64,000 nucleotides of DNA. Origin: an uncultured Spirochaetales bacterium (GTDB lineage: Bacteria; Spirochaetota; Spirochaetia; Sphaerochaetales; Sphaerochaetaceae). The DNA lies in the NCBI GenBank assembly GCA_902781545.1, contig CACZJR010000002.1, positions 5,134 through 69,133 on the forward strand, written 5' to 3'. Under the pieces are notes generated by a model. The model did no database searches, had not been told where the DNA came from, and saw only the letters and a list, made by a program, of their open reading frames with translations. Both the position numbers and the translations under genes were made by a program. Every line of letters starts with the position of its first letter. The stretch's first letter is position 1. This document shows positions 14,116-34,381 of the stretch, in pieces.

Positions 14116-14274
14116 ATGGTTGCTCTCCTTTTGTACTTTTAATTATCATATGCACAAATCAAATCCGCAACAGTAAATTTCATTAGTTTCAGCCTCTCCT
14201 TTTTTCAAGAATATCTGTTGTTGTAGAATGGAGTTGTTTTTATTGACAAAAACACATTTCATTGTTTATTGTTT

Positions 14275-14293
14275 ATTGTATACAAAATACAAT
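14275..14293. promoter_or_regulatory. candidate GntR-family operator
   Basis: ATTGTATACAAAATACAAT has 7-5-7 inverted arms (ATTGTAT/ATACAAT) and contains the perfect palindrome TTGTATACAA. It lies 14 nt upstream of the GntR start, in the divergent region shared with oppA. Confidence 0.4.
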
Positions 14294-14306
14294 GAGGTGT
14301 TTTTAA

Positions 14307-14969
14307 ATGATTCCGTTCACAAAACTTGAGGCCACTCCCCTCAGTGACAGGATATCCACGCTGCTGAAGGACGCCATAATCGAAGGACAGTTCAAGGCTG
14401 GAGAGGAAATTGTCCTCACAGCCATCGCAGAACGTTACGGCGTCTCAAGGACCCCGGTCAGGGAGGCCTTCCAGAGCCTTGCAAAGGACGGCTTTCTGAC
14501 ACTGAGGATGAACAAGAGCGCAATAGTGGTGGGAATTGACGAGCACTTTCTCAGAAACCACTATGAGATAAGAAGCGTGCTTGAGGCACAGGCAGCCTAC
14601 AATGCTGCGGCAAACGGCAAGGATTTCTCTCGACTGCAGAGAATACAGGACGATGCGGAGAAGATGCGTCTTCCGATGTCTCTTGATGAGTTCCGCTCCT
14701 ACAACATGAAGTTCCACAGGTGCATCTGGGATCTCTCCGGTAATGAGAGGCTGCAGCAGCTGCTGTCGGACATGTGGGTGAGCTCCTACTCCTCTAGCGC
14801 CCTGCCTGAGATCCACAGGCAGACAAGGACATTCAATTCCCACAGGCGCCTGATAAATGACATAATCAACCATGACTGTGATGCAGCGTTCGAGCACATG
14901 AAGAGACACATCATCGGAAGTCTGAATAATATCCTCAAGATACTTGATGAGGGAAAGAAGGAGGCATGA
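14307..14969 (+). CDS. GntR-family transcriptional regulator (FadR/FCD subfamily)
   Basis: 220 aa with an N-terminal winged HTH (IAERYGVSRTPVREAFQSLAKDGFL) and a helical FCD-like C-terminal domain. Confidence 0.85.
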   Translation: MIPFTKLEATPLSDRISTLLKDAIIEGQFKAGEEIVLTAIAERYGVSRTPVREAFQSLAKDGFLTLRMNKSAIVVGIDEHFLRNHYEIRSVLEAQAAYNAAANGKDFSRLQRIQDDAEKMRLPMSLDEFRSYNMKFHRCIWDLSGNERLQQLLSDMWVSSYSSSALPEIHRQTRTFNSHRRLINDIINHDCDAAFEHMKRHIIGSLNNILKILDEGKKEA

Positions 14970-14970
14970 G

Positions 14971-15297
14971 ATGTTCAGCGCATTTGAGGTAGGCTATTAT
15001 CTTTATTTCCTTATCCTGGGACTGGCCCTCTACTATCTGTACAAGGCAATCAAGCAGATCAAGACCAAGGACATGGATTTCTTCAAGAAGGAGATCTACA
15101 CCGATGAGTCAGTCGAGAAATGGGCTGTCAGGGACGGTTTCCTGAAAATAGGAGCAGGCCTTGCATTCGGAGTCTATGGCGGACTTGGCCTTGTAGGGAT
15201 AAACATCCTCTACATCACAATCGGGGTCCTTGCAGTCCTGGTCGCGCTTTATTTCTTCCTTTACTCCAGGACCCTGGTCAAGAAAGAGGAGTACTGA
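14971..15297 (+). CDS. small membrane protein, unknown function
   Basis: I trimmed the ORF to the ATG at 14971, which has a GGAGG 6 nt upstream and sits 1 nt after the GntR stop. It has 2-3 hydrophobic helices. Confidence 0.5.
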   Translation: MFSAFEVGYYLYFLILGLALYYLYKAIKQIKTKDMDFFKKEIYTDESVEKWAVRDGFLKIGAGLAFGVYGGLGLVGINILYITIGVLAVLVALYFFLYSRTLVKKEEY

Positions 15298-15300
15298 GAC

Positions 15301-16443
15301 TCAGGCAAAGTAGTTTGTCATGAAGTCCAGGAGCAGACGTGAGCCGTCAAGAAGGCTCTGAGGATCCAGCCACTCCTCCCTTGTATGGCACTTGCCTCCT
15401 ATCGCGCCGCCCATGCAGATTGCCGGAATCCCGATTGAGAGCGGGGTGTTCGCATCTGTGGAGCTGTACGCCCGCACCGGCTCCTTTCCTATGATGCGTC
15501 TCACGGAATCCTCGGCTTTTGCGATCAATGCCTCGTGGGCCGCAGGATCCACATCACCGGTACACGGCCTGTCACCGATTCTCTCACAAAGGACCTCGAT
15601 TCCGGTGCTCCTGTATGCCTCTATGACCTTGCCAAGCATTGTCTCCATTACGGCAAGACAGCTCTTGCTTGTCGAGCGGTACTCATAGAGCATGCTTGCC
15701 TCCTGGGCAATTGTGTTCACGCTTGTGCCGCCTGAGATCATCCCGACATTATAGGTGGTCCTGCTGTCCCCTTCAGAAGGCACCTTCACAGAATAAAGGG
15801 TACTGATCATGGATGACAGGCAGACAATGGCATTACGGTTCCCGAATGCCGCGAATGAGTGGCCGCCCTCTGTCCTGACAGTGATTCTGTATCTGTGAGA
15901 TCCTACTGCTTCGTTGACAACACGCTCCAGCCTGGTCCCGTCGACTGTGATGAACTCCTTTATGCGTTTCCCGTATCTGGAGACAATGGCACGGCTGCCT
16001 TTGAGGTTTCCAAGGCCCTCCTCGCAGGAGTTCGCCACAAACACCATCCCGCAGACGGTGGGTATGCGGTTCCTGAGGATATAGCGCTCAGCTATCAGAA
16101 GGCTTGCGAGGTTTCCGGTGTCATCAGTGACACCCGGGCTGCAGAAGAGACCGTCCTTCTCGACAAACGGCATAGGCTCAAGATCAGGGAACACTGTGTC
16201 GGTATGGGCCATGAAAACAACAACATCATTGTCTTCTGAGACATTGTACTCGCAGATTGCATTCAGGGCCTCATCAATGAAGACATTCTCCCCTCCTGCC
16301 TTGATGAACCAGTCCCTGCACCATGCGGCGCGCTTCTCCTCATGATGGCTCGGGGCCGGAATCGCGCAAAGCTGTCTGACAATGTCCTTGGCCTCCTCAT
16401 GGGAGGACCTGAGATACTGTTCCATCTGATAAGTCAGTGCCAT
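15301..16443 (-). CDS. M20-family metallopeptidase (PepT/ArgE-like)
   Basis: 380 aa with motifs AHTDTV, GVTDDTG, SCEEG, GGHS and HTREEW. Its start codon directly abuts the stop of the upstream gene. Confidence 0.8.
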   Translation of the reverse strand: MALTYQMEQYLRSSHEEAKDIVRQLCAIPAPSHHEEKRAAWCRDWFIKAGGENVFIDEALNAICEYNVSEDNDVVVFMAHTDTVFPDLEPMPFVEKDGLFCSPGVTDDTGNLASLLIAERYILRNRIPTVCGMVFVANSCEEGLGNLKGSRAIVSRYGKRIKEFITVDGTRLERVVNEAVGSHRYRITVRTEGGHSFAAFGNRNAIVCLSSMISTLYSVKVPSEGDSRTTYNVGMISGGTSVNTIAQEASMLYEYRSTSKSCLAVMETMLGKVIEAYRSTGIEVLCERIGDRPCTGDVDPAAHEALIAKAEDSVRRIIGKEPVRAYSSTDANTPLSIGIPAICMGGAIGGKCHTREEWLDPQSLLDGSRLLLDFMTNYFA

Positions 16444-17532
16444 TTATGGTTTCCTCCTTACGGTCATCACCATTCCGAATGCAAGTACCGCCACCGTACT
16501 GACTATCCCCGCAATGATGAGGACAATGCTGTACTGCGTCTTTGAATACACCCCTCCGTCTCCCGGTTTTGACATTGGCACCGGGTCATACTTTATGCCG
16601 TTGTCCGCTGCAAGCTGCTTGACGTTCAGCAGGTTTATGATGGGGATTCCCCTGTCCAGATACTCGAAGACAAGGCCCCGGTCACTGGTGGTGGGGATGT
16701 TCTGGAACGTCATCGCAAGTCCGGCAGGAAGCGTGAGGCTCACCGAGGATGTCCCCTCATTCACGGCTGCCCCTCCGACATTGACGAACAGGTCAACATC
16801 ATCTCCGAAAAGCTCAAAGCGGTGCCTGATGTTGTCGCTGATGTTGTTTATCTGTATGAACTCAGCACCTGTCCTTGCGGCCACATCAGCGCATATCTGC
16901 CGCGAGAGCTCCGCAGAGCCCTCATAGAACATGCCCTCCAGCACACCTCCGCCCTGGTCATTGGCAGAGCCACGGGATACAGCAATCAGGTCAAAGTCGG
17001 CGAACCCGCCTTCCTTAAGCGCAAGGATTATGTCAAAGATGTTGTACTCTACCCTTGTCGCCCCGTGCATAGAGGCTCCGAGACTTGCAATGACCCTAGT
17101 CCTGAGCCCCATCTGGCTTGCGGCGATTATGGTGGCTATGGCAAGACCCGGAAATGAGCCGCTTGTACCTACGGCAACCACATCTCCTCTCTTGAGTCCT
17201 GCCTCATGGTAATAGCGGACCATCGCAGCGGCGAAATTAGGATTCAGGCTTGTGCGTTTGGCGTCCTCCGAGCCCGGAGTACTGGTGAGCTCCGTGAACT
17301 CGGGGCCTATGAGAAGCATCTTGTTCAGGTCCTCGGGCTCCGGCTCAATGCCTTTTGAGAGCATCTCCTGCCTGATATATTCCTCTGCATCAGCCATTGT
17401 CCTTGCAGCTGAGAGCTGCATGTTCGCAAAGCGGTTCTCCTCACGGTCCGCCCCTGCCACAACCGCGACAAGAAAGACAACTGCCACAGCCATGGCGGCA
17501 AGAAGATACCAGATACCGATGCTTTTCCTCAT
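16444..17532 (-). CDS. two-TM extracytoplasmic protein, probable poly-gamma-glutamate system protein
   Basis: I trimmed the ORF to the MRKSIGIWYLL start at 17532. It has N- and C-terminal TM helices around a domain of about 320 aa. Size and topology match what I recall of the TIGR04332 family, which accompanies pgsB/pgsC. The family assignment is from memory, not a search. Confidence 0.5.
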   Translation of the reverse strand: MRKSIGIWYLLAAMAVAVVFLVAVVAGADREENRFANMQLSAARTMADAEEYIRQEMLSKGIEPEPEDLNKMLLIGPEFTELTSTPGSEDAKRTSLNPNFAAAMVRYYHEAGLKRGDVVAVGTSGSFPGLAIATIIAASQMGLRTRVIASLGASMHGATRVEYNIFDIILALKEGGFADFDLIAVSRGSANDQGGGVLEGMFYEGSAELSRQICADVAARTGAEFIQINNISDNIRHRFELFGDDVDLFVNVGGAAVNEGTSSVSLTLPAGLAMTFQNIPTTSDRGLVFEYLDRGIPIINLLNVKQLAADNGIKYDPVPMSKPGDGGVYSKTQYSIVLIIAGIVSTVAVLAFGMVMTVRRKP

Positions 17533-17546
17533 AACGACCTTCTCTG

Positions 17547-17582
17547 AAACAAAACCAGAGGTGCAGACAGCCGCACCTCTGG
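17547..17582 (-). terminator. rho-independent terminator after orphan gene X1
   Basis: The minus strand reads CCAGAGGTGC-GGCTGTCT-GCACCTCTGG followed by TTTTGTTT, a 10-bp perfect stem. Confidence 0.65.
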
Positions 17583-17611
17583 TCACATTTTAAACCGAAA
17601 TCACAAGACCG

Positions 17612-18283
17612 TTAATAGATGGTCTCGTAAATCATGGACTCAAGCGCCCTCAAACCTGTGCGGAACACAATATCGGTGAGATCCTGCGAAAGCGCTGCGG
17701 CGATTACACCTGGCCTGATGTAGTAGAAACCCTCAATGCCAGGAATCACCCTGTTGATCACTGTCGCAATCATGTTCAGCTCTTCATTGCCCACTGCATC
17801 AACGAACTTGAAGAAGAACGCTCCGTCCTTCAGCTCGAATCCGAAGTCATAGCCCACAATGCTGAACTGTTCGCTCGCTTCTGAGACCACATCCGTATAC
17901 CCTGTGCCTTTACCGTTCTTTGCAGTGTACATGGCAAGATGGATAGCTGCCCTCCTGAATGCGTTCAGGATATCAGTCTCCTCCACTCCTCTGGGGAAAA
18001 GCTTCTCCAGGTCCTCATTGGTTGTGACCGGTGTATAGCCGGGGCCATAACCAAGAAGAGAGAGAGCCCATGCGACCTCATCATCTTCTGCACCTGCCAT
18101 ATGCTTGTAGAACTCAACAGGATCATCATAATCACCTGCCAGGTTCTGAAGCACATCAGCGCAGTATGCAAGATCAAATGTCACTTTGGGGTCTGCCTTG
18201 CTGGCAGGACGGTAAGCGGCAAAAACCGACTGTGATACAAAGAGCACAACGAGAATTGCTAATACGACTTTAAGTTTCTTCAT
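17612..18283 (-). CDS. secreted protein of unknown function (orphan X1, paralog of 21711..22385)
   Basis: 223 aa with signal peptide KLKVVLAILVVLFVSQSVFAA. It is collinear with X2 (shared PVEFYK, FPRGVE, FRRAAIHLA.YTA.NG, ending Y..IY). I recognise no family. Confidence 0.7.
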   Translation of the reverse strand: MKKLKVVLAILVVLFVSQSVFAAYRPASKADPKVTFDLAYCADVLQNLAGDYDDPVEFYKHMAGAEDDEVAWALSLLGYGPGYTPVTTNEDLEKLFPRGVEETDILNAFRRAAIHLAMYTAKNGKGTGYTDVVSEASEQFSIVGYDFGFELKDGAFFFKFVDAVGNEELNMIATVINRVIPGIEGFYYIRPGVIAAALSQDLTDIVFRTGLRALESMIYETIY

Positions 18284-18295
18284 CTGCTCCTCCTA

Positions 18296-19936
18296 TCATT
18301 CCTCTGGTCTGAGCTTGTCTCCCATATTCTCGAGAATGATGTTTGTCCACCACTCCGGTCTTGAAGGAACCTTCATGTTGACGTTGCCGAGCATGTACTT
18401 CTGTGTGAGCTTGTCACCCAGTGCACTGTAGGTGTTGAACCAATCATTTGCGGTGTTGTTCATGAATGTGGTCAGATAATTGACCGCCAGATCCTCTCTG
18501 CCGACCTCGATCATGGATGCTGCGATCTCCTGTGCTGCTGCAGTCTGGACATACAGGCTATCCTGCTTCGGATCACGCACTGCCTTGACATCCTCGATTG
18601 CGGACTGGTAGTTGATTGTTGTCAGCTGCTGTACGACAGCCTCGTTCCACCAACCGGACTGTGGGTCATACTCTGTTCTGACACCGCGTCCGAAGTGCTC
18701 CGGGAAGTACTTTGCGGAAGCGAAGACAGGAGTGAGGTATGTGACGCTCGGTGCACCCCAACCGACCCAGACAAGACATCTTGCTTCCTCAGGAAGGTAA
18801 GCCTTGACGTTTGCAATCTGGATGTATGTGCAGCGGAACATGTTGATAGGTCTTGCAATACCGACCTGTGTATCCTGCTTCAGGCTATTGTTGTTGTTGC
18901 TCAGCGGGTTGCCGAACTCTCCGGCCTGGACTGTCCTTGAGACATCGAACTGTGTGCCCTGATAGTAATCTGAGCACATGTCCTTGATTGTCTGGACGCT
19001 GATCTTCTCTGCCGGCTTGACGAACAGAGGATACTCGTTTGCGTCTCCGAACGGATCAAGGTCTTTTCCGACCTCAGGATTCAGCAGGTTGATTGCTCTC
19101 CACTCTCTGAGTGTGCATCCCATGTTGTTGAAGTCATTCCATGAATATGCCATGCAAGGCTGGAACTCTCCCTCTCCGTTCCACAGACCGCTCTCAAGGG
19201 CAAAAGACTTGAGTGTCGGGCTGCACTTGAAATCAGGATCATTCTCCTTGTAGACGTTGATCCTTGCCCTGTTGGCAGCAACGAATGCCATGTCATCAGG
19301 AACTCTGATGGCTGCCCACTCATATCCGCCGTAAGCCTCGAAGATCCAAGCCTCGTTTCCGTCACAGATGTTGATACACTCGCAGCAGAAATCAGCCCAT
19401 CCGCCTTCCTCGATGCACTTTCCCATGAACTCAACGGCCTCTCTTGCTGTTGAGCAGTTCTCAAGAGCCGCATCCTGGAGCATGTAGCAGTCCCACTTTG
19501 CCTTGCCTCTGATGTCGTTGAAGGCATAGTAAGCAGCCATTCCACGGTCATCTGAGAATGACATGGCACATGTGGACTCACCAATGGCAAGACCCTTGTC
19601 GTTCATGAATGAGTACATTCCATGGACATACTGGTTTGTGGCCTTCTCATTGACATAGGAGTCAACGATCTTGGCATTAGGACCGTAAGCGACATCCGGG
19701 AAGTTGCTGAAGTCTGAGCCTGCACGGCCGGAGACAACAACGTCACGAGTTGAGCCTGCCTCCATTGACGGGATGAGCCAGAGCCTGAGGTCATCACTGT
19801 TTGAGTCACAGGTGTGGCTGATCATTGTGGAGCCGTCAGTTGTGGCATCCTTACCTACTGCGAAAATGGTACATGCGGCCACGGACTGGAGTCCGATCAG
19901 AAGCACTACCAATAATGCTGTAAATACTTTCTTCAT
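18296..19936 (-). CDS. secreted C69-family Ntn cysteine peptidase (copy 1, B-type)
   Basis: 546 aa. The signal peptide ends VAA|CTIFAVGKDATTDGST, the C69 N-terminal nucleophile Cys motif. The C-terminal helical tail contains MIEVG. Confidence 0.8.
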   Translation of the reverse strand: MKKVFTALLVVLLIGLQSVAACTIFAVGKDATTDGSTMISHTCDSNSDDLRLWLIPSMEAGSTRDVVVSGRAGSDFSNFPDVAYGPNAKIVDSYVNEKATNQYVHGMYSFMNDKGLAIGESTCAMSFSDDRGMAAYYAFNDIRGKAKWDCYMLQDAALENCSTAREAVEFMGKCIEEGGWADFCCECINICDGNEAWIFEAYGGYEWAAIRVPDDMAFVAANRARINVYKENDPDFKCSPTLKSFALESGLWNGEGEFQPCMAYSWNDFNNMGCTLREWRAINLLNPEVGKDLDPFGDANEYPLFVKPAEKISVQTIKDMCSDYYQGTQFDVSRTVQAGEFGNPLSNNNNSLKQDTQVGIARPINMFRCTYIQIANVKAYLPEEARCLVWVGWGAPSVTYLTPVFASAKYFPEHFGRGVRTEYDPQSGWWNEAVVQQLTTINYQSAIEDVKAVRDPKQDSLYVQTAAAQEIAASMIEVGREDLAVNYLTTFMNNTANDWFNTYSALGDKLTQKYMLGNVNMKVPSRPEWWTNIILENMGDKLRPEE

Positions 19937-19947
19937 TCATGGCCTCC

Positions 19948-21570
19948 TTACTTTGCGATTGAGTCATTGACCTCATGAACCGCAGTCTTGACTGCTGTCC
20001 ACCAGTCTGCATCAGGAGTCGGTGCATTCTTGAACAGGACTCTGTTTGTTGCATACCTGGCAAGAAGCTGCACCTGCAGGTCCTTGTACAGGTCAAACCA
20101 CATGTTGGCCTGCTGGTCAGCATATGTGGTCAGAAGATCAATAGCCTCTTCTCTCATTCCGTTCTTGATCATCTTTGTTGCCTGATTCTGAACGGCGAAT
20201 GTCGTCTCATACTGGTCATTCATGAGAGGATCACGCACAGCCTTGATCTGCTCAATGGCATCTGCGTAATTGATTGTGGCGACCTGCTGGAGGAATGCCT
20301 CGTTCCACCATCCGGACTCTGGGTCATACTCTGCTCTTCTTCCTCTTCCGAAGGAATCGACAAGATGTCTTGCAGAGGCGAAGACCGGTGTCAGGTATGT
20401 TGTGCTGGGAGCACCGAAACCGAAGTAAACCAGACATCTGGCCTCTTCCGGCAGCCAGGCCTTGACGTTGGAGCACTGGAAGTATGTGCACTGTGAGACG
20501 TTGGTCGGTCTGTACTCGTACTCACCTGATGAGAGGAGGATGTTGCCGTAGCGTCCTGCATCAGCGGTCTTGGAGAGATCCCACTTTGTTCCCTCGTATG
20601 CATCTGAGCAGACCTCGTGGATCTTTGCCACGCTGACCTTCTCATCCGGCTTGAAGTAGATCGGGAACACATCATCAGGATTCTCGCAGATTGCAAGATC
20701 CTCGTTTGCCACGATCTCAGGATACTGGAGTCCTGCCAGGTTGCAGACAGCTCTCCACTCTCTTGCGATACAGCTGAAGCTGTAGTTTCCGGCTCCGAAG
20801 CACTGGCAGGGCCTGAACTCTCCCTTACCGTCCCAGAGGCCGTTGTCAATTGCGAACTCCTTCATGTTCGGAGCTGCAAGGTAGTTGTCAGGATCATTCT
20901 CGACGTAGAAGTCGATTCTTGAGCGGTTTGCACACACGAACACGGCATCCTCAGGAAGCCTGAATGCACACCACATCTTTCCGCCGTATGCCTCGAAAAC
21001 CCATACATCGGTTCCGTCACCGATTGTCATGGTCTCAGGAGATCCGCTCCATCCGCTCTCATTGAGCCTTGCACCCATGTACTCGACAGCCTCTCTTGCT
21101 GTGGCACAGTTCTCAAGTGCGGCATCCTGAAGCATGTAGCAATCCCATATTCCCTCATACTTTGCAAAGACGGCACGCTGGTCCCTTGTGGTTCCGCAGG
21201 TTGACTCTGTCATTGTCAGGCCCTTCTCATTGGCGAATGAGTACATTGCGTGCAGGTACTGGTATGTATCCTTGTCATTGACATATGTGTCCATGACAAT
21301 TCCACGTGTTCCGTAGTCCTTGACCTCAGGGAAATTGCCGTAATCGGCATCTCTGCGTCCGCTCAGGACAATATCTCTCTCAGAGCCCTCCTCCATTGAG
21401 GGGATGAGCCAAAGCCTGAGATCATCACCTGTTGAGTCACAGGTATGAGATGTCATCGTGGATCCGTCTGTCGTTGCCAGACGTCCAACACCGAAGATAA
21501 TGCATGCGAAGGTGCTCTGAAGGCAAATGCACAGCAGCACAAGCAATGCAATCAACAGTTTCCTTTTCAT
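19948..21570 (-). CDS. secreted C69-family Ntn cysteine peptidase (copy 2, A-type)
   Basis: I trimmed the ORF to the MKRKLLIALL start at 21570, which has a GAGGAGG SD. The signal peptide ends TFA|CIIFGVGRLATTDGST. The C-terminal tail contains MIKNG. Confidence 0.8.
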   Translation of the reverse strand: MKRKLLIALLVLLCICLQSTFACIIFGVGRLATTDGSTMTSHTCDSTGDDLRLWLIPSMEEGSERDIVLSGRRDADYGNFPEVKDYGTRGIVMDTYVNDKDTYQYLHAMYSFANEKGLTMTESTCGTTRDQRAVFAKYEGIWDCYMLQDAALENCATAREAVEYMGARLNESGWSGSPETMTIGDGTDVWVFEAYGGKMWCAFRLPEDAVFVCANRSRIDFYVENDPDNYLAAPNMKEFAIDNGLWDGKGEFRPCQCFGAGNYSFSCIAREWRAVCNLAGLQYPEIVANEDLAICENPDDVFPIYFKPDEKVSVAKIHEVCSDAYEGTKWDLSKTADAGRYGNILLSSGEYEYRPTNVSQCTYFQCSNVKAWLPEEARCLVYFGFGAPSTTYLTPVFASARHLVDSFGRGRRAEYDPESGWWNEAFLQQVATINYADAIEQIKAVRDPLMNDQYETTFAVQNQATKMIKNGMREEAIDLLTTYADQQANMWFDLYKDLQVQLLARYATNRVLFKNAPTPDADWWTAVKTAVHEVNDSIAK

Positions 21571-21631
21571 TTTTCCTCCTCTTGCCTCTCGGCTTGCGCA
21601 ATGCCGGCAGACAGCCGGCAAAAACGATTGT

Positions 21632-21682
21632 AAAAACAACAGGGAACACCCCTGACCATGAAACAAATCAGAAGTGTTCCCT
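21632..21682 (-). terminator. terminator-like hairpin after orphan gene X2
   Basis: The minus strand reads AGGGAACAC-(24-nt loop)-GTGTTCCCT followed by GTTGTTTTT. A second hairpin, GCCGGC-TGTCT-GCCGGC, follows at 21603..21619. Confidence 0.5.
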
Positions 21683-21710
21683 AACTCTGTTTAAAGATAC
21701 CTCCAGATCA

Positions 21711-22385
21711 TTAGTAGATCATGGCGTACATCAAGCATCTGGCATATGCCGTCAGGTAATCAAATCCGAACTGGGTCATTCCTGATGTGGTAATGTCAAT
21801 CTCTCCATATCTCGGGGATGAGATGCCCTCGAATTCTGCTCCGGACACGCACATGCCAAGCATGGAGGAAATGACCGCAAGCTCCTCTTCACTGTAAATG
21901 TCAATGAAGTTGAACTTGACTGTATTACCCTCAAGTGTGAGCAGATACTTGTAACCCACGATATCAAATTCGGCCTGTGCCTCATTGATGACCGCAGTGT
22001 CATGCAGGCGACCGTTGCGGGCTGTATAAGCTGCAAGGTGGATTGCGGCTCTCCTGAAAGCACTGACATAATCTGTGGGCTCCACTCCACGCGGGAAGAT
22101 CCTTGCAAGATCATCCATGGTGGTAACACTTCTGTACCCGTCCTCCGGCAATGCGTACAACAGCAAAATCATCTGAAGTGCTTCGTCAGGAGCTGCGGCG
22201 AATTCCTTGTAGAACTCCACGGGGTCTTTCTGAGACTCGCCTAGAAGCTGCAGGATATCGCAATATCTTGCCAGCTGGTCCGTGACTGCGGGATCAGCCT
22301 TCTGCACCGGAACAAATGCCGCAAATGCTGCCTGACAAACAAAGAGCACAACGAGAATGGCTACTGTAATCTTAAGTTTCCTCAT
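21711..22385 (-). CDS. secreted protein of unknown function (orphan X2, paralog of 17612..18283)
   Basis: 224 aa with signal peptide KLKITVAILVVLFVCQAAFAA. It is collinear with X1. Confidence 0.7.
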   Translation of the reverse strand: MRKLKITVAILVVLFVCQAAFAAFVPVQKADPAVTDQLARYCDILQLLGESQKDPVEFYKEFAAAPDEALQMILLLYALPEDGYRSVTTMDDLARIFPRGVEPTDYVSAFRRAAIHLAAYTARNGRLHDTAVINEAQAEFDIVGYKYLLTLEGNTVKFNFIDIYSEEELAVISSMLGMCVSGAEFEGISSPRYGEIDITTSGMTQFGFDYLTAYARCLMYAMIY

Positions 22386-22405
22386 CTGTGTCTCCTCTCA
22401 AAAAT

Positions 22406-23989
22406 TCACTCGACAATCTGATCCTTGACTGCCTTCCATGCATCCGGCTCCTTAGGAACGCTCATGTTGACATTTCCTAGAGCATACTTTGTCTCAAGGG
22501 CATTGCTGAGCTTCTGCCATGTCTTGAACCAGTCGTTTGCAGTTGTGTTCGCATAAGCTGTCAGATAATCCACAGCCTGATCCTTCATTCCGACCTCAAT
22601 CATGGATGCTGCGATCTGCTGGGCAACTTTAGTCTGCTCGTAGACTGTAGCCATCTTCGGGTCTCTGACTGCCTTGATGTCCTCGATTGCAGCCCTGAAG
22701 TTCCTCTGGGCCTGCATCTGGACAACCTCACTGAGCCACCATCCGGAATTCGGGTCATACTCGCTTCTCAGTCCGCGTCCGAAGAAATCCGGGAGAGTCT
22801 TCTGTGATGCGAAGACAGGAGTGAGGTATGTTGTGTTCGGTGCACCCCATCCGAAGTAAGCAAGACACCTTGCCTCCTCAGGAAGTGTGGCATCGACAGC
22901 TGCGATCTCGATGTATGTGCAGCGGTAGCAGTTGATTGTCCTGAGGGTGTTGTTGGAGTTGAGCGGGTTGCCGAAAGCACCTGCCTCGATTGTCTTGGTG
23001 ACATCGATCTCGGTTCCCTCATAGTTGGATGAGCTGATCTTGTAGATTGTATCAACTGTGACAGGCTCCTCAGGATATGCGAACAGCGGCCAGTTGAGGT
23101 CGTGGTCCGGATCCAGACGGTCGAGGTTGAGGCTTGGCTGGAGCTGCATGAGAGCTGACCACTCTCTGTTCACTGAGTAAGCATCGCTTCTCGGGCAGAA
23201 GATCCTGCACGGGATGAAATCACTCTTGCCGTCCCAGAGACCGTTGTCAATTGCCCACTCTCTGATATCAGGAGTGCAGAGGTAGTTCTCAGGATCGTCG
23301 AAATCAAAGTGGTTGATTCTTGCCCTGTTGGCGCATACAAAGACCGCACCCTCAGGAACTCTTACAGCAACCCAGATTCTTCCGCCGTAGAACTCAACTA
23401 CCCATGCCTCGTTTCCGTCTGCGACACAGACACACTCACATGAGTTTGTGCCGTACCAGCCGTACTCCTCAACAAGGGCGCCCATCTTCTCAACTGCCTC
23501 ACGTGCTGTTGAGGATGTCTCAAGGGCGTAATCCTGGATCATGTAGCAGTCAACAATGCCCTCTTCCTTTGCAAAGGCATCCTGAAGCTTCTGATCCTGC
23601 TCTGTGTATGACCAGTACCAGCAGGTCGACTCGTTGCAGGAAACTCCCTTGTCATTGATGAAGGAGTACATTGCATGCAGATACTGGTTGGTCGGCTTGT
23701 CATAGTTCAGTGTGCCAAGGACCATGCCGTTTTTGCCGTAATCCTTGACCTCCGGGAACTTTGAGTAGTCTGCACCGGCACGTCCGTCAAGGACAAGGTC
23801 TCTGTCTCCGGCCTCAAATGAGGGGATCACCCACAGTCTGAGGTCATCACTTGTTGAATCGCAGGTATGGGAGGTGATGGTGATTCCATCAGCTGTGGCT
23901 CCCTTGGAGACTGCGAAGATCGTGCATGCGGCTACGCTCTGGAGAGCAACCAGCAGGACGACTGTAAGGGCTAATAAAAATTTCTTCAT
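22406..23989 (-). CDS. secreted C69-family Ntn cysteine peptidase (copy 3, B-type)
   Basis: 527 aa. The signal peptide ends VAA|CTIFAVSKGATADGIT. It shares the VRVPEGAVF and MIEVG signatures with copy 1. Confidence 0.8.
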   Translation of the reverse strand: MKKFLLALTVVLLVALQSVAACTIFAVSKGATADGITITSHTCDSTSDDLRLWVIPSFEAGDRDLVLDGRAGADYSKFPEVKDYGKNGMVLGTLNYDKPTNQYLHAMYSFINDKGVSCNESTCWYWSYTEQDQKLQDAFAKEEGIVDCYMIQDYALETSSTAREAVEKMGALVEEYGWYGTNSCECVCVADGNEAWVVEFYGGRIWVAVRVPEGAVFVCANRARINHFDFDDPENYLCTPDIREWAIDNGLWDGKSDFIPCRIFCPRSDAYSVNREWSALMQLQPSLNLDRLDPDHDLNWPLFAYPEEPVTVDTIYKISSSNYEGTEIDVTKTIEAGAFGNPLNSNNTLRTINCYRCTYIEIAAVDATLPEEARCLAYFGWGAPNTTYLTPVFASQKTLPDFFGRGLRSEYDPNSGWWLSEVVQMQAQRNFRAAIEDIKAVRDPKMATVYEQTKVAQQIAASMIEVGMKDQAVDYLTAYANTTANDWFKTWQKLSNALETKYALGNVNMSVPKEPDAWKAVKDQIVE

Positions 23990-24005
23990 GTTCTACCGTC
24001 TCCTC

Positions 24006-25619
24006 TTATTTGTACTTGCCCCATTCTGAAGCGTTCAGTTCCTTCCAGAAGTCTGTGTACTGTGCTGATCTTGTGTTCATGTTGACTGCGCCGAACATGT
24101 ACTTTGCAATCAGCTCGCCTGTCAGCTCATCCCAGACGCCCTTCCACATCTGTGCCTGTGAGTTCGCATAGTTCGTGAGAAGTGCAACTGCCGCGTCCTT
24201 CTGACCGTTCTTGATCATCTTGGCCGCCTGATTCTGAAGTGCGAATGTGACATCATACTGTGTCTTCATCAGACCGTCACGCTTGGCGTGGATGTCCTCT
24301 CTTGCCATTCTGTAGTTGATTCTTGAGAGCTGCTGGACAAGAGCTGAAGTCCACCAGATTGTTGAAGGATCATACTCTGACCTGAGTCCGTGTGTGAACA
24401 TCGGATCAAGCTCTGTCATTGAACCGAACAGCGGTGTCAGGAAGTTTGTGTCGGATGCGCCGCAGCCGTACCATACCAGACATCTTGCCTCTTCCGGCAG
24501 CCATGCCTTGACGTTTGCGATCTGGACATATGTGCATCTGTAGCTGTTGATTGCTCTCTGGCTGAAGTCCTGTGCGCAGTTGAGTGCATCACCGAACTGT
24601 CCGCCCCAGATTGACTCTGATACATCGTACTCTGTGCCGGCATAGTAGTCACCGCAGATCTCATAGATCTTCTGGACGCTGACAGGCTCTGCAGGAACGA
24701 CGTAGCAAGGCCATGCTGTGTCAGGATTCTGCTCCTCGGGATCAAGATCCAGAGACGGATTCAGCAGAGTCATGGCTCTCCACTCTCTTCTTGTTGAGTA
24801 AGGCCTGTATCCGTAAGGTGCGAATGTCCAGCAAGGAATGAACTTGCTCCAGTCTGTTCCGTCCCAGAGGTTGTACTTGGCGACGAAGTTCTTCAGATCC
24901 GGTGCATAGAGGTAGTTCTCAGGATCATCCTCAACGAAGAAGTTGATTCTGGCTCTGTTGGCTGCCACGAAAACAGCATCCTCAGGAAGTCTGAAAGCAA
25001 CCCAGACATGTGCGCCGTAGCACTCCATGATCCATGCCTCGTTTCCGTCACAGATGTTGATACACTCAGGAGATCCGTTCCAGCCGTACTCGTCAATGAG
25101 CTTACCCATGAACTCAACTGCCTCTCTTGCTGTTGAGCAATTCTCAAGGGCGGCATCCTGGATCATGTAGCAGTCGATGATTCCGTCATAGTCGCGGTAG
25201 GCTGCCCTGACCTTCTGGCCCTGCTCGATGTTTCCGTTGATGGAACATGTTGACTCACCCATTGCAAGACCCTTGTCATTCATGAAGGAATACATTGCAT
25301 GAATGTAGCGGTTGGTGTCCTTCTCATAAGTGATTGTACCGAGCTCCATTCCACGTGTTCCGTAGTCTTTCACCTCCGGGAACTGTGAATAGTCGGCTCC
25401 GGCACGGCCGTCAAGAACGATGTCTCTCTCTGTTCCTGCAGGCATTGAAGGAATCATCCACAGCCTGAGGTCATCACCGGTGGAATCACAAGTATGTGAA
25501 ATCATCGTTGATCCGTCATCGCTGGCTTTCTTTCCTACAGCGAAGATTGTGCAGGCGAACACGCTCTGTGCGCAAAGGCAAAGAACAATGAGCACTGCCA
25601 AGAATACTCTTTTCTTCAT
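24006..25619 (-). CDS. secreted C69-family Ntn cysteine peptidase (copy 4, A-type)
   Basis: I chose the start at MKKRVFLAVL (25619), which follows GGAGGG. An alternative ATG lies at 25631. The signal peptide ends VFA|CTIFAVGKKASDDGST. It shares the FRLPEDAVF and MIKNG signatures with copy 2. Confidence 0.8.
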   Translation of the reverse strand: MKKRVFLAVLIVLCLCAQSVFACTIFAVGKKASDDGSTMISHTCDSTGDDLRLWMIPSMPAGTERDIVLDGRAGADYSQFPEVKDYGTRGMELGTITYEKDTNRYIHAMYSFMNDKGLAMGESTCSINGNIEQGQKVRAAYRDYDGIIDCYMIQDAALENCSTAREAVEFMGKLIDEYGWNGSPECINICDGNEAWIMECYGAHVWVAFRLPEDAVFVAANRARINFFVEDDPENYLYAPDLKNFVAKYNLWDGTDWSKFIPCWTFAPYGYRPYSTRREWRAMTLLNPSLDLDPEEQNPDTAWPCYVVPAEPVSVQKIYEICGDYYAGTEYDVSESIWGGQFGDALNCAQDFSQRAINSYRCTYVQIANVKAWLPEEARCLVWYGCGASDTNFLTPLFGSMTELDPMFTHGLRSEYDPSTIWWTSALVQQLSRINYRMAREDIHAKRDGLMKTQYDVTFALQNQAAKMIKNGQKDAAVALLTNYANSQAQMWKGVWDELTGELIAKYMFGAVNMNTRSAQYTDFWKELNASEWGKYK

Positions 25620-25637
25620 TTTTCCCTCCATGAATAA

Positions 25638-26918
25638 TTAGTATTTATCGTAATTTGCACCTACTGGTTTGTAGTAGATGGTAAACGCACGGTCCTTGTT
25701 CTCCGGAGCATTCGGATCCTTGAGGAAGTATCCGACACTGTCAATGCCCTGCTCCTCCAGCTCTGCCATCTCGAGATATGTCGGCCATGTGACCTGGCAG
25801 TCCATCTCAGGATAGAAGAAGCTTGCCCAGAAGATTACCTCCAGGGCTCCGGTCAGGTGACGACCGGTTCTGTACCACATCGGGGTTCCGAACTCCATGT
25901 CGTACGGGAAGTATGTCAGACCCTTGTCGGTGACCTTCTGCAGGAACTCGTCCTTACCCTCTGTCATGAGGGCCTCTGTCCTTGGTCCGGTGATCTTATC
26001 AATGAAGATCTCAGGAGTCTCCATCAGGAATGTCAGGCTGTCAGACCAGTCTGCCCACTCTCTGTGGCTCAGTCCGTGCAGTGTGTTCGGTGAAGCTGCG
26101 CTCTTCATGAGGAACTGGTCCGAGATGTTCATTCCGGCCATCATTGCAACGTCCAGTGAGCTCTTCTCCGGCTCATAATACTCCATCTCTCCTGTCTCCA
26201 GGAATTTCTCGCGGTCAAGGACCTTGGACGGTGCGACATAGGTGGATGTGACAGGATAAAGGATCTCTGCCTCATGCATGTCTATTGCAATGTCCACATG
26301 CTCCTGCCTGATGATCTCCATCACGGCATAAGCGGCTCTCTCGGTGAGGGTTCCGTTCTCACGTCCGGGGTATGTCCTGTTCAGGTTTCTGATGTCCTGA
26401 TATGCCAGGTTCTGTCCTGAAGGATAGTTGACGTATGTGAACGGATCAGGCCACTGGTCAAGCGGGTTGGTGTATCTGTCACCGATACGGTACTTTGAGA
26501 TTCCCCAGTCTGAGCTGACATGGAAGAACATGGGGTATGCGTCACCGACCATGCCCTCTGTGGAACCTGAGTAGTTGGCCCTCGGGACAATGATAACCTT
26601 TCCGGTCTCGACCTTGAGGTTCTCGATCATCAGATATGCCGCCATTGTGGATGCCGGCTCATACGGATGCGGACATCCGCAGATAAATACCGTTCCACCC
26701 TCGACGCCTGAGTCAAAGATGAACACCGGAGTATCCATCCATGTGTTCTTGAGTGACGGGACATAGTCGCTGAACCACTTGACCTCTGTCAGGTCCTCAG
26801 ATGCGACTATTGTCTCCTTGTAGTGCCTGAGCTGCCAGAACTCGATTCCTGCAAGAAGTGCAAGGACAAGCGCAAGAGCCAGCACGATAATCTTTACTAT
26901 CAATGATTTCTTTGCCAT
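25638..26918 (-). CDS. membrane-anchored zinc hydrolase, M14-like (AstE/AspA succinylglutamate desuccinylase/aspartoacylase-like)
   Basis: 426 aa with an N-terminal TM anchor. Candidate metal and substrate motifs are HPYE (CGCPHPYEPAS), PRANYSG and DMHEAE. The assignment is by motif only. Confidence 0.5.
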   Translation of the reverse strand: MAKKSLIVKIIVLALALVLALLAGIEFWQLRHYKETIVASEDLTEVKWFSDYVPSLKNTWMDTPVFIFDSGVEGGTVFICGCPHPYEPASTMAAYLMIENLKVETGKVIIVPRANYSGSTEGMVGDAYPMFFHVSSDWGISKYRIGDRYTNPLDQWPDPFTYVNYPSGQNLAYQDIRNLNRTYPGRENGTLTERAAYAVMEIIRQEHVDIAIDMHEAEILYPVTSTYVAPSKVLDREKFLETGEMEYYEPEKSSLDVAMMAGMNISDQFLMKSAASPNTLHGLSHREWADWSDSLTFLMETPEIFIDKITGPRTEALMTEGKDEFLQKVTDKGLTYFPYDMEFGTPMWYRTGRHLTGALEVIFWASFFYPEMDCQVTWPTYLEMAELEEQGIDSVGYFLKDPNAPENKDRAFTIYYKPVGANYDKY

Positions 26919-26928
26919 GCCCGCCTCC

Positions 26929-27102
26929 TCACTTTATGTAGAGAACCCTGAGAAGGAACGGGATGAGGCAGTATGCATACATGATGTCAAACACAACACC
27001 CTGGTTCTTCTTTCTCTTGAAAAGGCTCTTGAGCATGCTGAACGCTACAAGCCCGGCCATGACGAAATAAAGAATATGAATAAGATTCTCGAAAAATATC
27101 AT
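26929..27102 (-). CDS. 57-aa small membrane protein (not in the ORF track)
   Basis: My translation is MIFFENLIHILYFVMAGLVAFSMLKSLFKRKKNQGVVFDIMYAYCLIPFLLRVLYIK. It has an AAGGAGG SD 8 nt upstream and fills the gap between two minus-strand genes. The listed + strand ORF 26917..27120 is antisense to the operon. Confidence 0.5.
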   Translation of the reverse strand: MIFFENLIHILYFVMAGLVAFSMLKSLFKRKKNQGVVFDIMYAYCLIPFLLRVLYIK

Positions 27103-27116
27103 GTCTCATATCCTCC

Positions 27117-28424
27117 TTAGTACAGGAATGCAAATGCCGCAGGCTTGATGATCATGATCACGGCCATGAGACCAAGCACCAGCATCGGGATGAGCAGGGT
27201 CTTGAAGAATCCGATATAGGACTCCTTGTAACCTGTCTCCTCGCAGGCAAGCCTTCCGACGATCCTTGACGGAGGCAGTGTGTCTCCGAGCGGGAATATG
27301 AGCGAAAGAGCGGCACAAATGACGGTGACATCCATTCCAAGGGTATTGAACATGAAGATCAGCGGTCCGCCCAGGACAATTGATACGCCGTAGTTGAAGC
27401 ATCCCTGGCAGATAGGTCCGACAACCAGGATCAGCGAGTAGATCAGCACCAGCGGCAGTCCGACACATGTTGATCCGATCAGGCCTCTGACACCTGTTGC
27501 GGCCATTGCGCTCTGCAGGACTCCGATTGACAGGACGTTCGCGACCAGCGGGAACACCTGCTCCATTGTGTCATCAAGGATTCCCAGGTACTGCTTTGCG
27601 GTTGTCTTCTTCGGATTGCAGAGAAGAGCCACCAGAGCGGCAATGAGGAACATGAGAGGAAGTCCAAGAACCGGAAGTCCCCATGGGTCATAGAGAGCCA
27701 GGAGGAACAGTGCTATGATGGCGACGAACGGAAGGACAATCCTCCACCATGTGAGCTTTGGATCCTTAGGCGGGAACTTGGCAAGTGTCTCTTCCTTGCT
27801 CTGCGGCTTTGCGCCCCAGCCGATGAAGATGATCGTGAACGCGCCTGCAATGACAATAGGAATCAGCAGCAGCCATGTGAATCCGACATACGGCATGTTG
27901 GCCTGTGCTGTCATAAGCATTGTCCAGAGGTTGATCGGAGGACATGCGGCAGAGAGCATTGCGAAGAAGCAGATGAAGACGGTTCTCTTCTTCTTTGAGA
28001 TTCCCAGATACTCGAGGACAGTGTTCACAAGTCCGCCAAGGACGAAGATAGCAACTGATCCGGCACCGGTCAGGGCACCCGGAATCAGCATCATGATGCC
28101 CATGATTGAGAGGAGGATCCACTTGTTGTTGATCTTCTCCACGACCATTCTCGTGATGGCTGCGATTGCTCCGCTGTGGGAGTAGATGTTGACGAAGATG
28201 GATGCGGCAATGAAGAGCAGAGCCAGATCCAGGTTCACAAATAATCCCTCAACCAGGTACCTCACAGGGCTTCCAAGTGCCGGAACAGCGATTGTTCCAG
28301 CAATGGCGAGCACCACAGCTGCGACAGCCATTGAGATATCAGGTGATTTAAGCTTGATACTGCTCAGCACAAAGGCTGCGATCATGATGATCAGCAGGAT
28401 CAAAGTCAAAGTTGTAGTTGTCAT
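27117..28424 (-). CDS. polytopic permease (about 12-13 TM), ion-transporter-superfamily-like, substrate unknown
   Basis: 435 aa and hydrophobic throughout, with a central polar loop (GAKPQSKEETLAKFPPKDPK). I do not recognise a specific family signature. Confidence 0.55.
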   Translation of the reverse strand: MTTTTLTLILLIIMIAAFVLSSIKLKSPDISMAVAAVVLAIAGTIAVPALGSPVRYLVEGLFVNLDLALLFIAASIFVNIYSHSGAIAAITRMVVEKINNKWILLSIMGIMMLIPGALTGAGSVAIFVLGGLVNTVLEYLGISKKKRTVFICFFAMLSAACPPINLWTMLMTAQANMPYVGFTWLLLIPIVIAGAFTIIFIGWGAKPQSKEETLAKFPPKDPKLTWWRIVLPFVAIIALFLLALYDPWGLPVLGLPLMFLIAALVALLCNPKKTTAKQYLGILDDTMEQVFPLVANVLSIGVLQSAMAATGVRGLIGSTCVGLPLVLIYSLILVVGPICQGCFNYGVSIVLGGPLIFMFNTLGMDVTVICAALSLIFPLGDTLPPSRIVGRLACEETGYKESYIGFFKTLLIPMLVLGLMAVIMIIKPAAFAFLY

Positions 28425-28436
28425 CCAGACCTCCGC

Positions 28437-29054
28437 TTATTTCTTGATGAAGATCTTTGGTGCGGCCTGTACAAGGTCCATTGGCTTGTCGATGATTGTA
28501 AGAGGAATGCCGTACTGCTGGCTGATCTTTGTGAAGCGGTCATCAGCATTGTTGGCCTTGAGTGAGATGATCCAGTCTGACTGCGGGCAGACAAGATCGA
28601 TGATTCTTTCGTTTCCGTTGGTCGGAAGCTTAGGTGCACGTGCATCAGCCTCCATGCTGACTGCGACGATCTTCATGTTCTGGGCCTTTGCCTTTGCAAG
28701 GACTTCCTTGAGGAATCCGATCTCATCCTCGATTGTGATTCCGGATGCACCGAGTCCCTTCTCCGTGACGCTTATGACAATGACAAGTGTCGTGTATCTG
28801 CCTGAGTCGATATAGGCATATCTCTCCGGAGTCTCATCCTCAAGCCAGAAATCAGCATCCTCACCAAGTGTGAATTTCTTTGACTGGTTGATCAGGAGCC
28901 TGAGCATCTTGGAGCCGGCGCCCTGTCCGCCTGATGTGAGAAGGAACGGACATTCGAATGTCTGAATAGGATCTCCAGAAAGAACGGCAAAAAGACTTGC
29001 CGGTACAGCCAGGAGCATGATTGCAAGAATCAAGGTAATAACAACTTTCTTCAT
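28437..29054 (-). CDS. secreted protein of unknown function, possible accessory or binding partner of the permease
   Basis: 205 aa with a signal peptide (ILAIMLLAVPASLFA) and a 12-nt gap to the permease. It is the first gene after a sigma-70-like promoter. Confidence 0.55.
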   Translation of the reverse strand: MKKVVITLILAIMLLAVPASLFAVLSGDPIQTFECPFLLTSGGQGAGSKMLRLLINQSKKFTLGEDADFWLEDETPERYAYIDSGRYTTLVIVISVTEKGLGASGITIEDEIGFLKEVLAKAKAQNMKIVAVSMEADARAPKLPTNGNERIIDLVCPQSDWIISLKANNADDRFTKISQQYGIPLTIIDKPMDLVQAAPKIFIKK

Positions 29055-29124
29055 TCTTATCTCCTTATTTTATGTAAAGGTCTCTCCCGATATGAAAGAA
29101 ACCAAACAGTTTTCCCAATGAATA

Positions 29125-29153
29125 ATTTTAAACCTGCATAAGATAGATGTCAA
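29125..29153 (-). promoter_or_regulatory. sigma-70-like promoter for the 205-aa/permease/peptidase block
   Basis: The minus strand reads TTGACA-17 nt-TAAAAT, about 70 nt upstream of the ATG at 29054, within the only AT-rich 205-nt gap of the block. Confidence 0.5.
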
Positions 29154-29259
29154 ACAGTATTTATTACGAATACTAGATCAAAGTCAGATTTCATGTCGCA
29201 ATTTCATGTTTTCCGCAAATTAATGTTGCATTATTGCGGCAAACAGCAATTAGTAAAAA

Positions 29260-29694
29260 TTAAAGAATCCCAGACAGAATAATTAATCTTATTATGGCAG
29301 AAAGAATTGTCACGGCGGCCAAAGTCTTAACCACACCCTGCTTGAACATGTCGTTGGCAATCAGTCCCGGGATAATGAATCCGACCATCCTCACATCCTG
29401 TCCTATGAAGCCCAGATACTTGGAGAACACCTGCTCCACAAGCCATGTCCCTATGAGGGAGAGAAGCACAACCACCATGAAACGCCTTCTCCCGTATATA
29501 ATTATGAACTTCTGAAGCAATATTGTCAGAAAGTAGATGGCCATTGACAGGACAAGAGTGCTGATGATCCTTGCAGGAGTGGCCATGAAAAAGGCCATGT
29601 ATCCTGCGGAGACAAGACCTCCAGTGGCTATTCCAAGAAACTCAGAGAAAAGAAATCCCAGTATAATGCTGATCCCTATCGCCTTGTGTAACAT
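29260..29694 (-). CDS. pgsC: poly-gamma-glutamate biosynthesis membrane protein PgsC/CapC
   Basis: I trimmed the ORF to the MLHKAIG start at 29694, which has a GGAGAG SD and sits 1 nt after the pgsB stop. At 144 aa it aligns with B. subtilis PgsC, including IYGRRRF and FIIPGLIAN. Confidence 0.85.
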   Translation of the reverse strand: MLHKAIGISIILGFLFSEFLGIATGGLVSAGYMAFFMATPARIISTLVLSMAIYFLTILLQKFIIIYGRRRFMVVVLLSLIGTWLVEQVFSKYLGFIGQDVRMVGFIIPGLIANDMFKQGVVKTLAAVTILSAIIRLIILSGIL

Positions 29695-29695
29695 C

Positions 29696-34224: not shown

Positions 34225-34332
34225 AACGCCTCCTCTCCAACTAACCACATATCCAAGGATATGAGTGTCAACGGCATATGTCAACTTCAAGATTGATGTC
34301 CGGCGGACTGTTTTGTGCGGAAAAACTGCACG

Positions 34333-34365
34333 AAAAAGGGGCCCTGCACTTTGCAAAGGCCCCTT
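34333..34365 (-). terminator. rho-independent terminator of the tct/enzyme operon
   Basis: The minus strand reads AAGGGGCC-TTTGCAAAGTGCA-GGGCCCCTT followed by TTT, 17 nt after the dehydrogenase stop. Confidence 0.6.
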
Positions 34366-34381
34366 CCTTAATTGAAAGAAG

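Follow-up and report, generated by a model that had tools for sequence, protein, structure and literature searches.

Gene organization of the C69 locus

The 64,000-nucleotide stretch of DNA analyzed here (the window), from a contig of an uncultured Spirochaetales bacterium of the family Sphaerochaetaceae, carries four genes for peptidases of family C69 and two genes for small proteins predicted to be exported, X1 and X2. They form six co-directional open reading frames on the minus strand in the order A2-B2-X2-terminator, then A1-B1-X1-terminator, where A2, B2, A1, and B1 are the C69 genes. An initial annotation of this DNA, in which these four were named C69-4, C69-3, C69-2, and C69-1, respectively, gave the same gene order, which the six open reading frames bear out, and interpreted the two triplets as copies of one duplicated unit. 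Judging from their sequences, however, the four C69 genes diverged anciently and are not recent copies of one unit, and they belong to a conserved cassette that lies beside genes of the poly-gamma-glutamate (PGA) type.

The first triplet consists of A2 (24006–25619, with an alternative start at 25631; Pfam PF03577 E-value 3e-57), whose leader ends in VFA|C, B2 (22406–23989; E 3e-55), and X2 (21711–22385), a protein of 224 aa in which a signal peptide is followed by a helical N-domain and a C-domain of the type that we call Y. The second triplet consists of A1 (19948–21570; E 2e-46), whose ATG start is preceded by AGGAGG, B1 (18296–19936; E 9e-60), and X1 (17612–18283), a protein of 223 aa with an N-terminal helical domain at about residues 24–128 and a Y-type alpha/beta domain at residues 133–223. 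Gene order and orientation are identical in the two triplets. Spacing is tight, with 11–20 nt between the genes of each triplet and 12–20 nt between the last C69 gene and X.

The A2-B2-X2 run makes up the last three genes of an operon of seven. Upstream of A2 and on the same strand are genes for a DUF6305 protein (28437–29054; 205 aa, predicted to be exported), a 435-aa polytopic membrane protein with a sub-threshold match to DctM (27117–28424), a 57-aa membrane protein (26929–27102), and a 426-aa hydrolase with an N-terminal membrane anchor and a weak match to AstE/AspA, which are M14-like (25638–26918). The 57-aa gene lies between those of the 435-aa protein and the AstE-like hydrolase. The A1-B1-X1 run is a unit separate from this upstream operon.

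The C69 peptidases

All four C69 proteins match PF03577 from end to end, with scores of 159–203 bits against a cutoff of 23 and E-values of 1e-46 to 1e-60. In phmmer they are weakly similar to 5IAU, a dipeptidase of solved structure (E 1e-20), and A2, the only copy scanned against the NCBIfam equivalog NF033678, scores 197 bits, below the cutoff of 250. The likeness to the known family (dipeptidase A or PepD type of the N-terminal nucleophile (Ntn) hydrolase clan PB, to which 5IAU belongs) consists of the full-length domain match and the conserved C-T/I-I-F motif. The window proteins differ from that family by a Sec leader, removal of which would leave Cys at the N-terminus, by a C-terminal extension of ~90 aa, and by occurring as 1–4 tandem paralogs within a PGA-type locus, an arrangement for which no report was found in the literature searched.

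The nucleophile Cys is predicted to stand at the start of the mature protein, as all four copies, like 115 of 127 relatives, have a leader ending in A-C-T/I-I-F. There are 116 columns with conservation of 95% or more, and each window copy keeps 115 or 116 of them (A2 keeps 115), including the post-leader Cys. All four enzymes are apparently intact catalytically, and none resembles a dead enzyme. They are probably Sec-exported Ntn-cysteine peptidases, in which cleavage of the signal peptide would expose the nucleophile Cys. The leaders (25540–25619, 23920–23989, 21500–21570, and 19870–19936) end in L/V-(A/F)-A-C with the catalytic Cys at +1, and these ends are compatible with a signal peptidase I (SPase-I) site and a lipobox alike. 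The type of signal peptidase matters here because lipidation would block the Ntn nucleophile.

Relationships among the four C69 paralogs

The initial annotation took the C69 copies at the same position in the two triplets (A2 with A1, and B2 with B1) as sister pairs that represent an A-type and a B-type. It reasoned that an ancestral A-B-X operon had been duplicated in tandem, and that A and B may act as a heteromer with X as a partner, chaperone, or inhibitor. Some features of the window fit such an event. The triplets are alike in gene order, spacing, and the presence of terminators, and every protein motif quoted in support was found: FRLPEDAVF and QNQA(A/T)KMIKNG are common to A2 and A1, and RVP(E/D)..F, AQ(Q/E)IAASMIEVG, and Y(A/M)LGNVNM(S/K)VP are common to B2 and B1. 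In addition, the tails of B2 and B1 are 53.5% identical as compared to 31–41% in other pairs.

The full sequences do not follow this pattern. Pairwise identity among the four proteins is 52–57%, with no pairing by A or B. A neighbor-joining tree was made from 127 sequences, of which 120 are relatives from the database and the others are the four copies in the window and those encoded on syntenic contigs. In this tree the window copies are placed in four separate clades, each with orthologs from other organisms; bootstrap support is 100 for the A1, A2, and B1 clades and weaker for B2. The A1 clade is a long branch, and the nodes joining the clades have bootstrap values of only 35, 14, and 3. 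A four-point test on clade-mean distances with 200 resamplings favored the pairing of adjacent genes (A2,B2 | A1,B1) in 195/200 cases for the full length and in 200/200 for the catalytic 445 residues, which is the grouping that the initial annotation had named as evidence against its proposal. The last 71 columns taken alone favored (A1,A2 | B1,B2) in 158/200 cases, a result due to the B2-B1 tail identity mentioned above. Informative sites at the level of clade consensus number 1–3 per partition, and no partition, including that by A and B, is supported by them. With so few sites, the relation among the four C69 clades is effectively a star.

The signatures themselves are confined to close relatives of the window and are absent from most members of the same clades, so that the distinction between A-type and B-type does not mark a deep split. 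For example, most proteins of the B2 clade bear the "A-type" tail (AVQNQAAKMIKNG, QNQAAKMIKNG), and a B1-like tail occurs within this clade only in the sub-clade nearest the window (P0094, P0096, P0099). Likewise, most A2-clade proteins read ARVPDD, and FRLPEDAVF is limited to the sub-clade nearest the window. Direct repeats between the paralogs are found in coding DNA only, at 60–83% identity; because of this low identity, any gene conversion in the shared patches must be old. Recent conversion behind the shared tail and motif was considered and dismissed, as DNA identity there is only ~62–83%. The signatures are lineage-specific features that could reflect old conversion or convergence by position in the run.

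Gene order in related loci

The comparison was extended to 50 related loci, comprising contigs with X homologs, B1-clade orthologs, one distant Y, and 32 loci from species-representative genomes that were gathered with the C69 alignment. The loci were annotated with hidden Markov models and reference proteins. The named records are metagenome-assembled genomes (MAGs) of Sphaerochaeta, Sphaerochaetaceae, Ornithospirochaeta, or Spirochaetales from rumen and gut. The order DUF6305, 435-aa membrane protein, 57-aa protein, AstE-like hydrolase of ~420 aa, and a variable number of C69 genes is invariant in every locus with enough flanking sequence, and PgsB-PgsC-TIGR04332 adjoins this block in every locus seen. 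Runs of 1–4 C69 genes together with X, or with its shorter relative Y (see below), occur in one cassette in ~30 species-level genomes as well as in metagenome contigs. The association of C69 with X therefore extends far beyond the window, and a functional link between them is supported. The conserved unit is DUF6305, the DctM-like protein, the 57-aa protein, the AstE-like hydrolase, 1–4 C69 peptidases, and Y or X, beside PgsB-PgsC-TIGR04332.

Across genera, the C69 runs are composed combinatorially; the run ahead of one X or Y gene has one to three C69 members, drawn from different clades. The arrangement of the window, A2-B2-X followed by A1-B1-X, is found in L002 and L003, and other close relatives have A2-X followed by A1-B1-X. 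In other genera, A2-clade genes stand with B1-clade genes and A1 is alone: several loci read A1-Y then A2-B1-Y, several others A2-B1-Y then A1-Y, and several A2-B1-Y only. Two loci have A1-A2-Y (L043, L044), L018/L035 have B2-o-Y, and in six loci Y is encoded on the strand opposite to B2-(B2)-o-PgsB-PgsC-TIGR04332-AstE. At least two species, however, have both the A2-B2 and the A1-B1 pairing. One contig of a more distant MAG (L049) reads A2(82%)-B2(83%)-X(42%)-TIGR04332, and another contig of the same MAG (L021) reads A1(75%)-B1(73%)-Y(120 aa), so that the long X form ends only the A2-B2 run there. The search for A-B-X triplets in other genomes, which the initial annotation had suggested, was thus successful for the A2-B2-X trio.

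Within the species, B2 is dispensable. Some strains have it and others do not, although their other genes are 91–100% identical, and the insertion or deletion corresponds exactly to 22430–24005 of the window (as compared to L005 and L001). The strains that lack B2 have short intergenic DNA in the form of an inverted repeat, with a weak resemblance to the 3' end of B2; this possible relic suggests that B2 was lost.

The non-coding DNA of the two triplets was also compared. In a scan of 17.5 kb, the two best hairpins resembling intrinsic terminators are those at 21683–21640 after X2 and 17584–17553 after X1. The former has an 18-bp stem and a T-run (folding z-score -3.8) and ends the upstream operon; the latter has a 14-bp stem and a T-run, with the 10-mer GGCTGTCTGC (17563–17572) at its apex. 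The initial annotation stated that each module ends with a hairpin whose loop contains this 10-mer. Both 10-mers do sit in hairpins, but the second one (21607–21616) is in a small GC hairpin without a T-tail (21602–21620, TGCCGGC-TGTCT-GCCGGCA), which lies downstream of the actual X2 terminator. The 10-mer has three copies in the window as compared to 0.32 expected by chance. In the set of 50 related loci, its occurrence is limited to the DNA after X1 in L005–L008, four contigs that are nearly identical, and no locus has it after X2; this rules it out as part of a conserved regulatory element. The two hairpins after X1 and X2 are not homologous, and the intergenic junctions are not similar either. 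No Rfam matches were found in window positions 14000–31500.

Based on the identities, the phylogeny, and the comparative gene order, duplication of a whole A-B-X unit is rejected: genes at the same position are not the closest paralogs, the non-coding junctions are unlike, and the C69 genes are combined differently from genus to genus, with 1, 2, or 3 of them per X or Y. The dispensability of B2 in strains of the same species also weighs against it. The recurrence of the two pairings in another species and the likeness of the triplets speak for the tandem operon duplication with its A/B heteromer, which is nonetheless improbable. As a lesson for annotation, look-alike tandem triplets can come from shuffled old paralogs.

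Several other features of these loci were seen in the comparison. The block Y-AstE-TIGR04332-PgsC-PgsB is inverted between L018/L035 and L031, L033, L040, L042, L045, and L048; this inversion explains why the position of Y varies from species to species, either beside C69 or past the PGA genes on the opposite strand. The species that differ by the inverted block also bear a second AstE-like gene. Three bins labelled Bacteroidaceae, Clostridium sp., and Lachnospiraceae (L025, L026, L027) hold a high-identity Sphaerochaetaceae cassette, probably by bin contamination. The number of synonymous substitutions per site (dS) between the window and L001 or L009 is 1.0–2.5 for PgsB, PgsC, and TIGR04332 and 0.4–0.7 for the central transporter and C69 genes, a contrast indicating that the locus is a recombination mosaic.

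The X and Y protein family

X1 and X2 have no family match in Pfam, NCBIfam, or PHROG (the PHROG scan gave similarity only at the level of the signal peptide), and a word-indexed search for X returned only 20 relatives. The initial annotation regarded X as an orphan protein, with X1 and X2 as collinear paralogs. The two are indeed collinear, with 45% identity, but X is no orphan: over its C-terminal ~90 residues, it matches lipoproteins that accompany C69 arrays throughout Sphaerochaetaceae. These Y proteins, of ~120 aa, follow C69 genes in other genera and align to X residues 133–223 with blastp E-values of 1e-15 to 1e-9. The invariant residues of the family are G144, Y145, D162, G192, F207, and Y219, and the C-terminal LIYDTIY is conserved. 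The genera carrying Y have B1 orthologs at 63–74% identity. Y has a lipoprotein signal sequence (L-x-G/S-C), whereas X has an SPase-I-type leader and an extra helical domain of ~100 residues. From this comparison, X appears to be a lineage-specific long form of Y in which the lipobox was lost and the N-terminal helical domain gained.

When 1.84 billion representative proteins were searched exhaustively with a profile, 45 members of the X/Y family were found, and the named ones are from Spirochaetales or Sphaerochaetaceae only. Two of the 45 (P0167 and P0168, on L017 and L053, contigs of <2 kb) are lipoproteins with a Pro/Ala-rich linker and 4–5 tandem Y domains, which suggests that the Y domain is a binding module. 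The N-domain of X has relatives of its own. The stand-alone secreted proteins P0193–P0197 match only this domain and share the motif FPRGI..T..YDTFRR.A.HLA, and one such protein (L051, 4027–4719) is encoded in an unrelated neighborhood (Wzz, methyltransferase, PTA). These stand-alone relatives suggest that X originated by domain fusion.

The AlphaFold2 models are confident: that of X1 has a pLDDT of 90 and a pTM of 0.83, and the C-domain modeled alone has a pLDDT of 87. The predicted fold consists of a five-helix N-domain and a C-domain of the order beta-beta-beta-alpha-beta-beta-alpha. A Foldseek search of the Protein Data Bank (PDB) with the full model and with the C-domain model gave no match below E 0.05, with template modeling (TM) scores of at most 0.48, and a profile search of PDB sequences with X gave only noise. 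Y is a small domain family not described before.

X evolves unusually fast as compared to its neighbors. Among strains whose C69 proteins are 91–100% identical, X2 orthologs are 58–78% identical and X1 orthologs 71–100%. The ratio of nonsynonymous to synonymous substitutions (dN/dS) is 0.16–0.26 for X and 0.03–0.12 for neighboring genes, and dS is ~1.0–1.3 for X2 as compared to 0.02–0.4 for flanking genes. Between the window and L003, B2 is 100% identical and the adjacent X2 70% identical, which indicates allelic replacement by recombination. The X genes act like divergent alleles (window X1 and X2; L001–L010 and L019–L020). Within X, variation is greatest in the Y-type C-domain. X1 and X2 share 52% identity in the N-domain and 29% in the C-domain, no closer than X is to Y. 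The much faster evolution of X relative to C69 argues against a tight co-evolving complex.

One possible role of X and Y is that of a dedicated exported inhibitor or folding chaperone that keeps the C69 enzymes inactive until needed. Precedents are the staphopain-staphostatin and SpeB-Spi systems, in which a small inhibitor gene directly follows the cysteine peptidase gene. The X/Y loci are similar in that the gene for a small non-enzymatic protein lies directly after cysteine peptidase genes in one transcription unit; an X or Y gene is directly downstream of C69 in most loci, at 12–20 nt in the window, and the protein is predicted to be a small non-enzymatic alpha/beta domain. A weak Foldseek likeness to type III secretion chaperones and other protein-binding sandwiches (E 0.05–0.4, TM at most 0.48) also points in this direction. 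In contrast to staphostatin and Spi, however, Y and X are predicted to be exported by a lipoprotein signal or signal peptide, are sometimes unlinked to the peptidase genes, and lack a structural match. Their ratio to C69 is not 1:1, as one Y serves 1–3 C69 genes of different clades, and six loci encode Y on the other strand, with four genes between it and C69. X diverges to 57–78% identity against nearly constant C69 enzymes, and neither Foldseek nor the PDB-sequence profile search found significant similarity of X/Y to a known inhibitor or chaperone. A role of this kind seems quite unlikely.

The polyglutamate neighborhood and a model for the cassette

The PGA-type genes flank the C69 region on both sides, all on the minus strand. 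PgsC (29260–29748; TIGR04011, 108.7 bits, cutoff 96.45) and PgsB (29696–30850; TIGR04012, 238.8 bits, cutoff 222.7) are encoded upstream of DUF6305, and the TIGR04332 poly-gamma-glutamate system protein (16444–17532; 263.6 bits, cutoff 100) downstream of X1; all three are thus above their NCBIfam cutoffs. An M20 peptidase gene (15301–16443) lies downstream of the TIGR04332 gene. In L014 and L016, a C26 gene of the gamma-glutamyl-hydrolase family follows the PGA genes. No PgsA/CapA or PgsE homolog was found among the neighbor proteins scanned, and the TIGR04332 protein is there instead.

A dedicated hydrolase gene next to PGA synthase genes has a precedent in Bacillus, where the degradative pgdS flanks pgsBCAE (PMC5751247). 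The window resembles the pgsBCAE-pgdS and capBCADE loci in having PgsB and PgsC homologs and genes for exported hydrolases beside the synthase genes. It differs from the Bacillus loci in the hydrolases, which are C69 (Cys-Ntn) and AstE/M14-like enzymes, not NlpC/P60 (PgdS) or GGT (CapD); in having a TIGR04332 protein and no detected PgsA/CapA or PgsE; and in the additional DUF6305, DctM-like, 57-aa, and Y/X proteins. CapD and GGT are themselves Ntn-hydrolases. The locus is of the PGA type with dedicated exported hydrolases and contains an undescribed small domain family.

The DUF6305, 435-aa, and 57-aa genes (26929–29054) resemble an undescribed tripartite transporter. The likeness to tripartite ATP-independent periplasmic (TRAP) transporters (DctP/DctQ/DctM) consists of an exported soluble protein, a large polytopic protein, and a tiny membrane protein encoded upstream of the hydrolases. 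Unlike in TRAP transporters, the DUF6305 and 57-aa proteins do not resemble DctP and DctQ in sequence, and the match of the 435-aa protein to DctM (PF06808) is weak, at 21.3 bits (E 1.3e-4) and below the Pfam gathering threshold of 23.8.

With these neighbors, X and Y could belong to the PGA machinery, as a stand-in for PgsA/CapA or PgsE or as an anchor of the polymer, and the C69 enzymes could be ordinary nutritional dipeptidases that share the neighborhood. In keeping with this, Y moves with the PgsB-PgsC-TIGR04332-AstE block in the inversion (L018 as compared to L031, L033, and L042), genes for a peptide ABC transporter, a GntR regulator, and the M20 peptidase adjoin in the window, and a PgsA/CapA homolog is missing from the proteins scanned. 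On the other hand, TIGR04332-type proteins are annotated in other phyla, for example in Francisella, yet the 45 members of the Y family have, where named, been confined to Spirochaetales and Sphaerochaetaceae. Given this narrow distribution, Y is not a general PGA component. In most loci Y or X is co-directional with a C69 gene and 20–130 nt away from it, and in the window a terminator separates X from the PGA genes. We consider this alternative possible but doubtful.

We think it probable, though far from certain, that the region is the peptidase part of a conserved Sphaerochaetaceae cassette that would serve as an exported hydrolase and uptake module for PGA-type turnover, with X/Y as an accessory. 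The substrate of the exported AstE-like enzyme and the C69 peptidases may be a peptide or polymer of the gamma-glutamyl type that PgsBC/TIGR04332 would produce, or similar peptides of exogenous origin. The adjoining tripartite-like transporter would import the cleavage products, and cytoplasmic M20 or C26 enzymes would complete the degradation. The multiple C69 paralogs could be specificity variants and not obligate A/B heteromers. X/Y may be a non-catalytic binding or anchoring accessory that holds enzymes or polymer in position at the membrane or the surface of the cell; the proposed surface exposure would explain the rapid, allele-like evolution of X.

Several points weigh against this reading. 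The characterized members of C69 are alpha-dipeptidases. All loci seen hold both halves of the cassette, and synteny therefore cannot separate a C69-directed from a PGA-directed role of X/Y. Six loci have Y past the PGA genes, on the other strand. As the Y fold has no significant match, a binding or anchoring role would be argued from architecture only. The C69 phylogeny was made by neighbor-joining with simple distances and not by maximum likelihood. In addition, a neighbor-joining tree of C-domains, which groups all X forms with a bootstrap value of 69%, would hint that the X1/X2 split is younger than the C69 splits, but this reading was set aside, as the C-domains of X1 and X2 are only 29% identical.

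A bolder version of the model, offered tentatively and with rather low confidence, is that Sphaerochaetaceae have an undescribed system that turns over a polymer of the PGA type. In it, the C69 enzymes would act as gamma-glutamyl hydrolases or transpeptidases in the role of GGT, CapD, or PgdS, together with the AstE/M14-like enzyme and the new transporter, and the new, rapidly diversifying Y domain would tether enzymes or polymer to the cell surface, its divergent alleles being kept by phage or host selection. A literature search found no paper linking C69 with PGA, Sphaerochaeta, TIGR04332, or DUF6305. If true, the proposal would give the first functional context for a large unstudied C69 expansion in gut and rumen spirochetes, and a new enzyme class for PGA biology outside Firmicutes. 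The new small protein domain Y and the candidate tripartite transporter are both directly testable.

Further upstream of pgsB, window positions 30841–34398 hold a set of genes resembling Bat/MoxR-type operons. They encode a MoxR AAA+ ATPase, a protein of 408 aa that weakly matches DUF58, and a membrane protein of 404 aa that weakly matches GT87 and DUF4129. This set is syntenic in close relatives.

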